Part shown: one piece after another, positions 3,684 to 9,445 of the stretch
Numbering within the stretch: position 1 is the first letter of the stretch
Layout of the letters: every line of letters starts with the position of its first letter
Virus record (IMG/VR): IMGVR_UViG_3300030328_002321
Span: 21,959-85,958 of that record
Source: a virus
Reading direction: 5' to 3' (one strand)
Length of the DNA stretch: 64,000 bases
Translations under genes and position numbers: made by a program
The notes under the pieces: generated by a model
The model's input: only the letters and a program-made list of their open reading frames with translations
Databases searched by the model: none
What the model was told of the DNA's origin: nothing

Positions 3684-3919
3684 TTCTTTTGCATTTTAAC
3701 TGTTCCGTTTGTATCTATTTCAATAATAGAAGATTTAGATTGTTTATTAAACTCTGTAACATATGGGGCTATATCCGTACGAGTTACTAAAAATGATAAG
3801 AATACTTGTAATTCTTTTAATAATCTATCACTTTTTTCTTGTAACTCAATAGTTTTTATCTTAGCATCTAATAATGCATGATAATCTTCAAGTTTTAGAG
3901 TAACTTGGCCTTTTACCAC
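3680..3919 (-). CDS. Hypothetical protein
   Basis: 79-aa ORF coupled to groES. Confidence 0.6.
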   Translation of the reverse strand: MVKGQVTLKLEDYHALLDAKIKTIELQEKSDRLLKELQVFLSFLVTRTDIAPYVTEFNKQSKSSIIEIDTNGTVKMQKK

Positions 3920-4182
3920 TTTCCTAATATTTGATGTTCTGATATAATTAAATATAACTGACCATCAATCTCTGTTCTTGCAGCTTCTGATCTAGGATCT
4001 ACCATAACAGTATCCCCTTTTTCTACAAAATGACAATTAGGTCCAACAGCTAGCGCCTCCAAAACGTTTGATCGCTTTGCATTTTCCTTAGCTGTAGCCT
4101 CATCTAAGATTATTCCTGATTCTGTTTCTGTAATTACTGGGTCTGGAAGGACAACCCACGATCCACTTGGTTTAAAATTCAT
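3913..4182 (-). CDS. groES: GroES/Cpn10 co-chaperonin
   Basis: MNFKPSGSWVVL...TESGIIL (mobile loop)...AVGP...VEKGDTV...IDGQLYLIISEHQILG is the classic Cpn10 signature. Confidence 0.9.
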   Translation of the reverse strand: MNFKPSGSWVVLPDPVITETESGIILDEATAKENAKRSNVLEALAVGPNCHFVEKGDTVMVDPRSEAARTEIDGQLYLIISEHQILGKW

Positions 4183-4199
4183 ATCTATATATTTTTATG

Positions 4200-4232
4200 C
4201 AAATATATAAACAAATTTTTTATAGTTCCAAA
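4200..4232 (-). promoter_or_regulatory. Bacteroidota sigma-A promoter for the groES-terL operon
   Basis: On the minus strand, TTTG (4232-4229), a 21-nt spacer, then TATATTTG (4207-4200), matching the -33/-7 TTTG/TAnnTTTG consensus, just upstream of the groES ATG. Confidence 0.8.
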
Positions 4233-4256
4233 TATTTTAAAGAAAAGTTTTAATAC

Positions 4257-4510
4257 GAGAGAATTAGATATAACTCTCCCCCTTGAGGATTCTATTTCAA
4301 GTTGTGATTTCACTCTAGCAGTGCTCCGTTTTACGGGACCCAAGGATACTAAAACTGGTGTTAATTCACCGCACTTACCTGTGTGCATTGTATCCTAACT
4401 AGAGCTTATACGTTAACTCTTTTGCAACTACCGGAGAAAACTCTATCTCTATTTGAGACTACAATCCGATGTCTAATCCCTTTTTTGTTTACCGGGGGAT
4501 GATAATGTTG
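4257..4510 (-). ncRNA. Candidate large structured noncoding RNA (about 250 nt)
   Basis: GC-enriched island between two leftward promoters with many nested helices (CUCUAG/CUAGAG, AGGAUAC/GUAUCCU, GGUG/CACC, GCAC/GUGC, AGUUG/CAACU, GGAUU/AAUCC, GGAUUAGA/UCUAAUUC) and crossing pairings; family not recognised. Confidence 0.6.
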
Positions 4511-4515
4511 CAGTG

Positions 4516-4546
4516 CAAAATTAATAAAAATATATTACAATGCAAA
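4516..4546 (-). promoter_or_regulatory. Bacteroidota sigma-A promoter upstream of the candidate ncRNA
   Basis: Minus strand TTTG (4546-4543), 19-nt spacer, TAATTTTG (4523-4516); predicted TSS near 4510. Confidence 0.75.
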
Positions 4547-4606
4547 TAAAAACACACAAATCATTAATAAAATATATATGACAGGAGAAATATCAAATTT
4601 TTTCAT
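4535..4606 (-). CDS. Putative 23-aa leaderless membrane peptide
   Basis: MKKFDISPVIYILLMICVFLFAL; the ATG lies 5 nt downstream of a TATATTTG -7 box (4618-4611). Confidence 0.45.
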   Translation of the reverse strand: MKKFDISPVIYILLMICVFLFAL

Positions 4607-4787
4607 ACTACAAATATACCTACCCTGATCTCTAGGGATGTTAAGGAAATGTTAAATTTTAAAATAAAAAAAATTTTTTTTGATGGGTTTGTGAACGTGT
4701 GAACCAACACAATCAAAGACCCCCGCTATGCTACGCACTTAAAACACCCCGCATTGGGATTGTTAGTGTTAATACATAATTTGCCTT

Positions 4788-5042
4788 ATGGATAATCCAA
4801 TTTTAGCGACGTATATACGTCCAACTCAATCACTCAACCACGTAATGGTTGCGTATCAACCTAATATATTCTCTACTAATAAGATTATTGCTTATGTAAA
4901 GAATAGTGACTTTTTTAAATCCTTTGTTAAAGGACAAGAGTTTAAATTACCAGCTAATCCTCGTCCTGAATTTCGTTTCACCGAAGATGGAGAGAGATAT
5001 GAGTATTCTGATGGTACACCGCAAGTGTATTTAGAGTGGTAA
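4788..5042 (+). CDS. Hypothetical early protein
   Basis: First plus-strand ORF (84 aa), followed by a terminator. Confidence 0.65.
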   Translation: MDNPILATYIRPTQSLNHVMVAYQPNIFSTNKIIAYVKNSDFFKSFVKGQEFKLPANPRPEFRFTEDGERYEYSDGTPQVYLEW

Positions 5043-7293: not shown

Positions 7294-7550
7294 TGGGACA
7301 AATGAAATGGATAGTTAGTCTTGCAGAAGATGGGAGACTAGAAGAATACATGAAAGTGTATTATGAAAATTTAGCTAATAACTGTGCTGGCTTTACATAT
7401 GATGGAAAGTTTTTAAGTATGATGAGAGCTACAGCGGTATTAAAGTTATTAAAAGAAGCTAGTTCAAAATATAATTCGTATCTTGAAGAGCGAGCTGAAC
7501 AAGAGCAAGCACAACGAATATATAATAACGAAATAGACGCAAGAAAATGA
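7293..7550 (+). CDS. Hypothetical protein
   Basis: 85-aa ORF with an ATGA overlap to polA. Confidence 0.65.
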   Translation: MGQMKWIVSLAEDGRLEEYMKVYYENLANNCAGFTYDGKFLSMMRATAVLKLLKEASSKYNSYLEERAEQEQAQRIYNNEIDARK

Positions 7551-9445
7551 TTTATTTAGTAGATGGGTCAGTAGAAACGATACCTTCTCCACATTATCAG
7601 TTGGCAACGATTGATGATGTGGTTAAGTATTGTGAGAACAAAGAAATACTTGGTGTAGACACGGAGACTGAAGGTTTTGACTTTACTTGTAAAAAGATGA
7701 TTATGTTTCAAATTGGTGACAATGAAAAACAATTTGTAATTGATACTCGTATTATAGGTATTGAACCTTTACGCCAAATACTAGAAAATAAAACAATCAC
7801 TAAAATATTTCATAACGCAAAGTTTGACTACAAATTTATTAAACGATGGTCTAATATAGATTGTGAAGGTATTTATGACACCTTTTTAACTGAGCGTGTT
7901 CTTAATTGTGGTAAAGATAAGTATGGATATGGATTGAAAGATGTATGCAAAAGATATTTGAATGTAGATTTAAATAAAGATGTGCGTAATCAGTTTATAG
8001 GACTTACAGGTCAACCATTTAAAGATGATCAAATTGTGTACGGTGCAAAAGATGTAGAATATCTTATTAAAATACGTACGCATCAACTACCTCTTATAGA
8101 TAAGTATAAACTACATAATGTAGTTGAACTTGAAAATAAAGTAGTATCCTCATTTGCAGATATAGAATACAATGGTTTAGAACTAGATGTAGAACAATGG
8201 TCAAAGTTAGAAGCTCTTAACACTGACAATGCTAATAAATTAGAACAAGATCTAGATACCATGATTAGAAATGATTACAGAGTTAAACACTTTGTATCTA
8301 AATATGTGCAAACAGATATGTTTACTCCAATTGAAGAAATTAGAGATATAGATATAAAATGGACATCACCTAAACAAGTGTTAGAAGTTTTTAAATGTCT
8401 TATTCCTAATCTTGACAATGTTAATGGTAAACAAATGTATAAATATAGATTTAAGTTTCCTCTTATTGATAAATATGTAAAATATAAGGAAGCTATGAAA
8501 TTATGTACATCTTATGGTGATGCATTCTTTAAAAATCTAGCAAGTGATAACAAAATACATACAAACTTTCATCAGATACTAGATACTGGTCGTGTAAGTA
8601 GTAGTAAGCCTAACATGCAACAGATACCTGCAGATAATATGTATAGAAATTGTTTTACAGCTCCAGATGATTGGAGTTTTGTAAGTTCTGACTACAGTTC
8701 ACAAGAATTGAATGTAATTGCATTTGGCTCTAAAGATCCTGTATGGCTAAAAGCTTTAGAACAAGAACAAGATCTACACTCAACATGTGCAGAGCTAGTT
8801 TATGGGGAAGAATGGATTAATGCAGCTGAAGACAATTGCCTTTATATGAGTAAAAAACAAAAGTGTAATTGTCCTTCACATAAAAAATTAAGAACAAATG
8901 TCAAAACTATTAATTTCGGGCTTGCTTATGGGATGGGCCCTAATAAGCTTTCTGATACTCTTAACATCAGTTTGGATGCAGCTAAAGAGCTCATCGAAAA
9001 GTATTTCCAAGCGTTCCCAGCAATCAAAGGGTTCCTAGATAAGCTAGGTAACTTTGGTAAGAAATTTGGATATATTAAAACATTTCCTCCATATAATAGG
9101 AAAAGATGGTTTAGTAATTGGTATCCAAAGATTTGGAACAATAAATCATCTATGATGGAGCTTGGTAGCATCGAGCGTGCTAGTAAGAATACACCTATAC
9201 AAGGTGCATCTGCAGATATGACTAAACTTGCACTTATACTAATGCGAGATTATATAAAAATAACTGATTGTCCTGTAAAACTAGTAATGACAGTGCACGA
9301 TCAGATAGATACTATATGTAAAAATGATTATATAGATACGTGGACAGTTAAAATGCAAGAATTGATGGAACTAGCTGCAAATCAAATAGTAACAAACAAT
9401 TTATTAAAAGCAGAAGTAACAGTTAGTAATTGTTGGGAAAAATAA
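7547..9445 (+). CDS. polA: DNA polymerase family A with 3'-5' exonuclease
   Basis: ExoI DTETEG, ExoII HNAKFD, ExoIII YGAKD; TGRVSSSKPNMQQIP; motif A DYSSQEL; motif B RTNVKTINFGLAYG; NTPIQG; motif C VHDQI. Confidence 0.97.
   Translation: MIYLVDGSVETIPSPHYQLATIDDVVKYCENKEILGVDTETEGFDFTCKKMIMFQIGDNEKQFVIDTRIIGIEPLRQILENKTITKIFHNAKFDYKFIKRWSNIDCEGIYDTFLTERVLNCGKDKYGYGLKDVCKRYLNVDLNKDVRNQFIGLTGQPFKDDQIVYGAKDVEYLIKIRTHQLPLIDKYKLHNVVELENKVVSSFADIEYNGLELDVEQWSKLEALNTDNANKLEQDLDTMIRNDYRVKHFVSKYVQTDMFTPIEEIRDIDIKWTSPKQVLEVFKCLIPNLDNVNGKQMYKYRFKFPLIDKYVKYKEAMKLCTSYGDAFFKNLASDNKIHTNFHQILDTGRVSSSKPNMQQIPADNMYRNCFTAPDDWSFVSSDYSSQELNVIAFGSKDPVWLKALEQEQDLHSTCAELVYGEEWINAAEDNCLYMSKKQKCNCPSHKKLRTNVKTINFGLAYGMGPNKLSDTLNISLDAAKELIEKYFQAFPAIKGFLDKLGNFGKKFGYIKTFPPYNRKRWFSNWYPKIWNNKSSMMELGSIERASKNTPIQGASADMTKLALILMRDYIKITDCPVKLVMTVHDQIDTICKNDYIDTWTVKMQELMELAANQIVTNNLLKAEVTVSNCWEK

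Follow-up and report, generated by a model that had tools for sequence, protein, structure and literature searches.

Background

The put RNAs of phage HK022 are cis-acting polymerase-utilisation antiterminators of about 70 nucleotides (nt), and the EAR element of Bacillus eps operons comprises about 120 nt; such elements are built from two hairpins or a pseudoknot. The PR' leader of phage lambda (the '6S' RNA, with the qut site) separates the late promoter from the long lysis/head/tail operon by about 200 nt of transcript in which elongation is licensed, and its control works through protein Q at a DNA site and a defined terminator. The large RNAs ROOL, GOLLD and OLE are two to three times larger than the RNA described here, belong to other phyla and often lie near transfer RNA (tRNA) genes. 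The present study concerns a structured RNA in a 64,000-nt stretch of viral DNA (the window), which represents bases 21,959 to 85,958 of the 85,958-bp IMG/VR virus record IMGVR_UViG_3300030328_002321, rated complete by CheckV. Positions 4267 to 4511 of the window (minus strand) almost certainly encode a genuine RNA, located upstream of a groES-like gene. The RNA family is new, in that it has no Rfam model match and no paper on it was found, and its mechanism may yet prove to be of a known type.

The element had first been proposed from the DNA letters (hereafter the original prediction) as a multi-helix RNA of about 250 nt, encoded by the minus strand, non-coding and preceded by a promoter, and this description is supported by the covariation and strand-specific folding reported below. 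Among the functions considered, that of a cis-acting leader controlling transcription elongation into the downstream operon is tentatively preferred.

Results

Homologues of the RNA

Relatives were collected by a GroES search of IMG/VR, of which the best 80 of 94 were used. The element was detected by blastn upstream of groES in 72 of the 80, ten of these being cut by the contig end; the other eight loci contain just 0 to 369 nt upstream of groES, gave no model match and are hence uninformative. The RNA is thus present in every relative with enough sequence, these being uncultured marine crAss-like phages. Nucleotide identity of the element is 74 to 99%, even where the identity of the GroES protein drops to 63 to 70%, and conservation does not extend into the spacer that separates the element from groES.

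A pattern scan for the 3' domain yielded at least 119 further stretches. Among the 80 loci listed, 77 were confirmed by the covariance model R1, and the three without an R1 match were rejected as chance pattern matches. Altogether, 129 entries from marine IMG/VR contigs were reduced to 92 distinct homologue sequences. Model R1 gave a single match, of 299.2 bits (E 5.6e-80), both in the window and in the 85,958-bp genome, which corresponds to one copy per genome. No match was found among 50,697 records of cultured phages, either by blastn of positions 4150-4800 or by tblastn of groES, and a pattern scan of 185,579 species genomes returned 20 stretches, none of which was confirmed by R1, with a pattern strict enough that copies could be missed.

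Two alignments were used. Alignment A1 was made by MAFFT without fitting to a model and comprises the window and 51 distinct full-length homologues (52 sequences); L070, L073 and L075 were omitted from the 55 distinct sequences available because their 5' domain differs. The alignment of all 92 distinct sequences is fitted to the model and leans towards it; the unfitted alignment gave the same helices.

Covariation and fold

RNAalifold analysis of the 52-sequence alignment predicted 54 base pairs, 22 of them with compensatory changes. Of the 4,911 pair cells in the 92 distinct sequences, 97.6% hold a standard pair, and both sides have changed in 31 of the 54 pairs. The covariation score was 0.381, as against 0.187 in shuffled alignments (0 of 500 as high), and fell to 0.04-0.08 when the partners were slid by one to three columns. 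Read from the minus strand, the RNA has a better fold than shuffled versions (z -2.71, equalled by 2 of 200), and read from the plus strand it does not (z -1.21, equalled by 23 of 200). Five pairs are G-U in 70 to 92 of the 92 sequences and would be A-C on the other strand, which identifies the minus strand as the RNA strand; the reservation in the original prediction that some helices extend better by G-U pairs on the plus strand therefore fails.

Ten helices (P1, P2, P3, P3a, P4, P5, P6, P6a, P6b and P7), with five branch points in the model, are supported. The RNA as modelled by R1 and covariation comprises 249 nt (4267-4515), and its likely first base near 4511 gives about 245 nt; all positions that follow are on the minus strand. 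The 5' domain (4424-4511) is a three-way junction closed by P1 (GCAAC/GUUGC; 4511-4507 with 4428-4424), in which all five pairs are compensatory, and it holds P2 and P3/P3a. P2 (4477-4499; 4499-4496 with 4480-4477; three of four pairs compensatory) bears a conserved 15-nt loop; in one divergent phage subtype and in the bacterial copies described below, a longer hairpin that contains an inner stem takes its place. The P3 arm (4430-4470) consists of P3 (4470-4465 with 4435-4430; four of six pairs compensatory), which encloses an invariant UUUUC stretch, and of P3a (4459-4455 with 4449-4445; five of five), whose loop is AAAUA.

The 3' domain (4299-4419) is closed by P4 (4419-4416 with 4302-4299; three of four pairs compensatory). 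Inside it, P5 (4314-4403; 4403-4398 with 4319-4314; four of six) is bordered on either side by conserved junction strands, encloses P6 and P7, and is kept in the bacterial copies. The P6 part (4343-4396), which these copies do not have, comprises P6 (4396-4390 with 4349-4343; 100% paired, three of seven pairs compensatory), P6a (4386-4383 with 4374-4371) and P6b (4370-4367 with 4360-4357), the last two with one compensatory pair each. The P7 hairpin (4320-4340; 4340-4335 with 4327-4320) has two bulges, two of its six pairs being compensatory and four invariant. The 3' tail (4262-4298) contains an invariant AAGGGGG run (4284-4278) and a conserved UAUAUC motif; an eleventh helix predicted in the tail is unsupported, with one-sided changes only in the 92 sequences.

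Many unpaired bases in the RNA are invariant. A covariation scan of all column pairs for tertiary contacts returned one isolated G-C/A-U switch between the junction strands flanking P5, which may represent a single event. Two divergent phage subtypes, scoring 129 to 161 bits, both keep the 3' domain and an invariant pyrimidine stretch; one has a longer P2 with an inner hairpin together with a compensated P3, and the other has a different 5' domain.

About half of the helices in the original prediction hold. Six coincide with covarying helices in the 92 homologues: UCUC/GAGA (P3a), CUCUAG/CUAGAG (P5), AGGAUAC/GUAUCCU (P6), GCAC/GUGC (P6a), GGUG/CACC (P6b) and CCG/CGG (the tip of P7). P1, P2, P3 and P4 had not been listed. 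The remaining proposals found no support in alignment A1, where GGAUU.UA/UA.AAUCC is paired in 70% of the cells, AGUUG/CAACU, which competes with the covarying P1, in 80%, GUG/CAC in 58%, and GAG/CUC in 82% without compensation. The same applies to the crossing pairings GUUAA/UUAAC (77%) and GUUUUA/UAAAAC (64%), and to UCCCCC/GGGGGA, which is 93% paired with one-sided variation only and whose 5' arm is taken by the covarying local hairpin P2. When GGAUU.UA/UA.AAUCC, AGUUG/CAACU and UCCCCC/GGGGGA were scored as a set, covariation was 0.168 versus 0.167 in shuffles, and 201 of 500 shuffles reached it. The pairing GGAUUAGA/UCUAAUUC, thought to close the ends, lies partly outside the conserved block and, as judged by eye, is without covariation support.

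Coding potential and known RNA families

A 67-amino-acid (aa) open reading frame (ORF) at 4185-4388 overlaps the RNA. A start codon at the matching column and a stop-free frame from there to the 3' end of the RNA were found in just 21 of the 92 sequences, which favours an RNA over a protein as the conserved product. A stop-free frame across the RNA was found in none of the 92 on the RNA strand and in at most 4 of the 92 on the opposite strand. Variation showed no 3-periodicity (diversity by codon position 9.83/10.12/8.95), and insertions and deletions had no bias towards multiples of three (segment lengths modulo three 32/30/30).

The whole window gave no match at the gathering thresholds of Rfam 15, whose 4227 families include pRNA, ROOL, GOLLD, OLE, 6S, tmRNA, RNase P and riboswitches; the family match that could have cost the RNA its novelty was therefore not found. 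At E<=10, positions 4100-4800 gave four chance-level matches of 10.7 to 22.6 bits, versus cut-offs of 52 to 100, none of them within the RNA; one, to RgsA (4209-4288), overlaps just the last 22 nt of the RNA, on the opposite strand. A full-text literature search, at the level of titles and abstracts, returned nothing on this RNA.

Promoters and RNA ends

In order to locate promoters, a strict pattern (TTTG-N-TAnnTTTG) was derived from the known consensus and spacing of Bacteroidota promoters. Both leftward promoters of the original prediction matched it. The promoter of the RNA (4516-4546, minus strand) has its -33 TTTG at 4546-4543, a 19-nt spacer, and the -7 box TAATTTTG at 4523-4516. The second promoter (4200-4232, minus strand) lies ahead of the ATG at 4182 and serves groES. 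The strict pattern had 10 matches in the window versus a shuffle mean of 5.06, with 5 of 100 shuffles reaching 10; since this enrichment is mild, the promoter call rests mainly on conservation. In 40 of 62 distinct contexts the TAnnTTTG box ends one base before model position 1, and in 58 of 62 it lies within 60 nt upstream. It is one base off in 1 of the 62, lies 4 to 19 nt upstream in 17, which are divergent subtypes, and was not found in 4. With the Bacteroidota spacing, the RNA presumably starts at or next to the first base of P1 (near 4511). A strict second promoter is present in the spacer before groES in 32 of the 62 contexts, this window among them. Positions 4535-4618 do not look conserved, most of them being passed over by the blastn alignments except in the closest relatives.

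Conservation at the 3' end of the RNA may reach about 4262. No conserved 3' terminator was identified, a crude scan having detected a terminator-like hairpin in just 5 of 91 distinct 3' flanks. Many relatives have a pyrimidine stretch shortly after the RNA with which the G run can pair.

Genomic context

The original prediction had described the element as a G+C-enriched island, and G+C content is indeed 0.39-0.44 over positions 4250-4499 versus 0.20-0.27 in the flanks. The groES-like co-chaperonin gene (3913-4182, minus strand), also identified correctly (Cpn10 E 3.3e-6; PHROG co-chaperonin E 3.9e-11), is the first gene of a leftward row on the strand of the RNA, in which small genes are followed by a terL/portal/virion row of large ORFs that extends to genome position 69, about 26 kb in all. 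A crAss-type TerL fragment at 1-1533 (511 aa) has 42-44% identity to annotated crAss-like large terminases (43.7% over 100% of the fragment). The RNA lies at the strand-switch point and adjoins the replication module, where the DNA polymerase encoded at 7547-9445 has about 30% identity to crAss-like family A polymerases. No tRNA or transfer-messenger RNA (tmRNA) gene was found in the window.

In relatives, ORFs were called from ATG starts only, at a length of at least 50 aa, and clusters found in fewer than five loci were left out of the listing. Of 76 oriented loci, 73 have groES after the RNA and on its strand, and the remaining three are too short to include the gene. An ORF begins 9 to 36 nt beyond the RNA in 13 of 62 contexts, without a strict promoter match in between, and in a few contexts groES is separated from the RNA by over 1 kb containing other genes. 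The ORF found directly after the RNA in place of the groES promoter encodes a Cys-rich protein of 62 aa, a basic one of about 72 aa or one of about 278 aa; the loci with such an adjoining ORF are L092, L119, L140, L149, L082 and L096 (9 to 10 nt after the RNA), L090, L111, L122 and L137, and L093, L104 and L108.

Marine RNA libraries contain contigs of relatives (90-99% alike). Two such contigs, each from a different study (X2 record 2 and X9 record 14), bridge the junction between RNA and groES, with the limits that contigs cannot show starts, ends, strand or level and that DNA may be present. Four RNA-library runs were compared; contig depth was about 5 (25 for X1, perhaps from DNA), and the sole piece from X5 spans 4282-4545. 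These contigs provide a weak hint that the region is not silent. A depth spike to 1334 at 4644-4674 in the oligo-dT marine library X2 was rejected as an artefact of priming or low complexity on an A/T run. A search for antisense targets in the phage genome found 71 ten-mers versus a shuffle mean of 76.4, and hence no excess.

An A8/T8 tract and, after it, a block of about 70 bp within positions 4640-4760 are conserved in 28 distinct relatives, in which this region showed no consensus RNA fold on either strand; it probably acts at the level of DNA, for instance as an origin, as a binding site or as a promoter used by another polymerase. Near the RNA, cumulative GC skew passes through a local minimum, which is not decisive because the skew tracks gene orientation. 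Elsewhere in the genome, an 18-bp G+C-rich hairpin lies on the operon strand in the gap after a 482-aa late gene (L239:13420-13459, minus strand, genome coordinates outside the window), and a further strong intergenic hairpin is located inside the late row on the same strand (L239:9984-10001).

Shorter copies in Flavobacteriaceae islands

When model R1 was run on a sample of 151 Flavobacteriaceae genomes, one weak full-length match (34.2 bits) was found, in genome G137. A second model (R2), restricted to the 5' domain and built from 55 diverse sequences drawn from 89 distinct ones and the G137 match, detected two copies in G137. A DNA search with the island module returned relatives in 6 of 401 genomes of the family, among which R2 confirmed G397, with two copies, and G349, where the match is truncated by the contig end; G220, G188 and G280 had no R2 copy. 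A match of R2 in G019 (30.8 bits) was rejected as false, as it lies inside a 497-aa ORF. Likewise, viral contigs scanned with a pattern of the island-type 5' domain gave a single stretch, located inside a 1479-aa ORF and without a model match.

The copies in G137 and G397 (L221:1445-1700, L225:1385-1672, L229:2020-2303 and L235:1265-1548, all on the minus strand) keep P1, a long P2, P3, P3a, P4, P5 and the G-rich tail, are without P6 and P7, and have one extra hairpin; seven compensated pairs were counted in a comparison of four sequences. They gave no Rfam match. The islands are small elements with a tyrosine integrase, a ParB-domain methylase and cargo genes, and the RNA copy is located at one end, where each copy heads a same-strand pair consisting of a 64-aa gene and a 70-aa HTH_17 (excisionase-like) gene. 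No virion, packaging or replication gene was found among the island ORFs scanned against Pfam. These short homologues in bacterial islands indicate that the role of the RNA is not tied to packaging. A hairpin with a U-run is present about 60 nt downstream in the island leader in all three copies considered. The 64-aa protein was found in 1 of 401 Bacteroidia genomes, G137 itself, and has no significant likeness to the small phage proteins (best E 0.025).

In G220, the same slot between conserved flanks (L228:1205-1500, plus strand) is occupied by about 290 nt of unrelated sequence, which has a similar UAUAUCUAAUU motif at its end, gives no Rfam match and folds no better than shuffles. The RNA therefore behaves as a cassette. 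The leaders of ribosomal RNA (rRNA) operons in G137 (L242) and G397 (L241) contain a TATATTTG box followed by CACC, the same box-plus-start layout as ahead of the phage RNA.

Discussion

We give most weight, at a probability of roughly 0.35, to a function in cis, with the RNA as a leader by which elongation of transcription into the operon is controlled. In such a scheme, host RNA polymerase would start at the -33/-7 promoter (4546-4516), and the first approximately 245 nt of the transcript would fold into the 5' three-way junction (P1-P3a), the 3' domain (P4-P7) and the invariant G-rich tail. By itself or together with a factor from the phage or the host, this folded leader would influence the polymerase during transcription and would decide whether the enzyme reads on into the groES-terL-portal-virion row, by a mechanism of the processive antitermination or of the attenuation type. 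The shorter island copies would gate the small excisionase-like operon likewise. This function is favoured because ORFs abut the RNA in some genomes, because no conserved terminator follows it and because the island copies precede a small operon. Also counted in its favour were the place of the RNA as first element of the groES row in 73 of 76 oriented loci, the hairpin with a U-run in the leader of all three island copies considered, the two strong intergenic hairpins inside the late row on its strand, the lack of an antisense-target excess and, weakly, the contigs that bridge the RNA and groES.

Several observations weigh against a leader of this kind. The second promoter, where present (32 of 62 contexts), makes groES independent of the promoter of the RNA, and the transcripts of polymerases that start there would not include the RNA. 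Compared with the known cis antiterminators, the RNA has three to four times their size and a much more ornate fold, and its many invariant unpaired bases would suit a ribonucleoprotein particle (RNP), a ribozyme or a ligand pocket equally. Terminator-like sites in the late row are not in excess (3 versus 2.0 and 7 versus 6.4 in shuffles), and the hairpin in the island leader was not flagged by the terminator scan and scored z -1.88, +0.30 and -0.82, no better than shuffles in two of the three. Nor do the RNA and the rRNA leaders of G137 and G397 have any conserved 8-mer in common, so that a boxA-like recruitment site is not evident. Passages of PMC10250234, which concerns E. coli, gave no flavobacterial motif.

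Nearly as likely as a cis-acting leader, and likewise tentative, is a stable RNA that stands alone and acts in trans, transcribed from a promoter of its own or excised from the leader, that would serve as part of an RNP, as a ribozyme or as a scaffold with a phage or host partner. It would account for an own promoter with a fixed -7 box, for the second promoter serving groES in 32 of 62 contexts, for ten helices with many invariant unpaired bases, for nucleotide identity that stays high where the GroES protein has diverged, and for the cassette behaviour in the island slot. However, no conserved terminator was found, just 5 of 91 flanks having a terminator-like hairpin; ORFs abut it in 13 of 62 contexts, antisense targets are not above chance, and no partner gene co-varies with it in presence, the last because the whole neighbourhood is syntenic. 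The separate transcript envisaged in the original prediction is uncertain, given the ORFs that begin 9-36 nt after the RNA without a strict promoter and the library contigs that continue into groES. The role in assembly or packaging, or as a decoy, that was also proposed there found no support and is weakened by the shorter copies in islands without virion or packaging genes among the ORFs scanned.

A riboswitch-like leader that senses a ligand, tying the late and island genes to a host metabolite or signal, appears quite unlikely. Its leader position, a size and conserved junction nucleotides typical of large aptamers, and a core (P1-P5) common to phage and island copies with a dispensable periphery (P6/P7) would fit, but no consistent expression platform was found, as terminator-like flanks are rare in the crude scan and the start codon lies at a variable distance, with a hairpin and U-run about 60 nt downstream in the island copies, no Rfam riboswitch matches, and the downstream genes hint at no ligand. 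Very unlikely is a pre-primer or origin RNA, in which a persistent hybrid formed through the invariant G run would prime leftward synthesis by the family A polymerase. The strand-switch point beside the replication module, the invariant G5 run, the adjoining conserved A/T tract and block of about 70 bp without an RNA fold, and the local minimum of GC skew all agree with it, but the skew is non-specific, the island elements have no replication gene among the ORFs scanned against Pfam, and ten covarying helices exceed the needs of a primer. A small protein gene or a chance fold in a conserved DNA site can be dismissed. The 67-aa ORF exists, and in a few relatives its frame continues into groES to give 151-aa ORFs, but it is kept in so few homologues, with frames closed, no periodicity and 31 pairs with compensatory changes.

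If the cis-acting leader is correct, it would be the first RNA of this kind, controlling elongation, for Bacteroidota, whose transcription and translation signals differ from those of model bacteria, and it would offer a ready-made control part for those organisms. A bolder version, for which the odds are clearly poor, is a new and unusually large class of polymerase-modifying or factor-recruiting antiterminator common to lytic marine crAss-like phages and to islands of their flavobacterial hosts, in which the islands would read the signal for late transcription of the phage and so express their excisionase-like operon in step with infection. The phages carry Bacteroidota-type promoters, and the sole cellular homologues found belong to Flavobacteriaceae, a family with a major part in the degradation of algal-bloom carbon. 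The island copies point to traffic or cross-talk between lytic phages and host genomic islands. Large, strongly covarying RNAs without known relatives are rare and have repeatedly been a route to new biochemistry, including riboswitches, ribozymes and RNP scaffolds; this one is located at the switch into the packaging and virion genes, in a widespread group of uncultured marine phages.

Comparison with known systems

The systems compared were set apart by their generally known properties together with the Rfam models. The ColE1 pre-primer RNA II and the P4 CI immunity RNA, which act on the replication or the operon of their own element, are, like the present RNA, structured and come from the control region of a mobile element; RNA II also has a G-rich tract, and CI derives from a leader, but no antisense partner or target repeats were found here, and there is no sequence or model similarity. 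The likeness to OLE, ROOL and GOLLD suggested in the original prediction holds for complexity and nothing beyond it; these RNAs are also orphan, highly structured, strongly covarying and partly phage-borne, but they are larger and from other phyla, their models do not match, and the window has no tRNA gene.

The phi29 pRNA is phage-specific, promoter-driven, multi-helix and of a similar order of size, and the present RNA stands in a terL/portal operon. However, the pRNA model does not match, and pRNA belongs to a motor without a nuclease-type large terminase, whereas the operon here holds a crAss-type TerL and the island copies occur without packaging genes among the ORFs scanned. As for the complementarity between loops of different copies by which pRNA forms a ring, just a 4-nt self-complementary stretch was seen by eye in the loop of P6b.

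The leader at lambda PR' is likewise a short transcript region heading a long late operon; here, in contrast, no conserved terminator and no known Q-like factor are found, and the RNA itself is highly structured and conserved. From put and EAR the present RNA differs in its 245-249 nt and ten helices, as opposed to a small fold, in the lack of a model match and in the second promoter that often follows. It resembles them in being a structured, non-coding RNA of conserved position and orientation behind the promoter of a long unit, and, as with put and EAR, its placement is between a promoter (box in register in 40 of 62 contexts) and genes on the same strand (73 of 76 loci).

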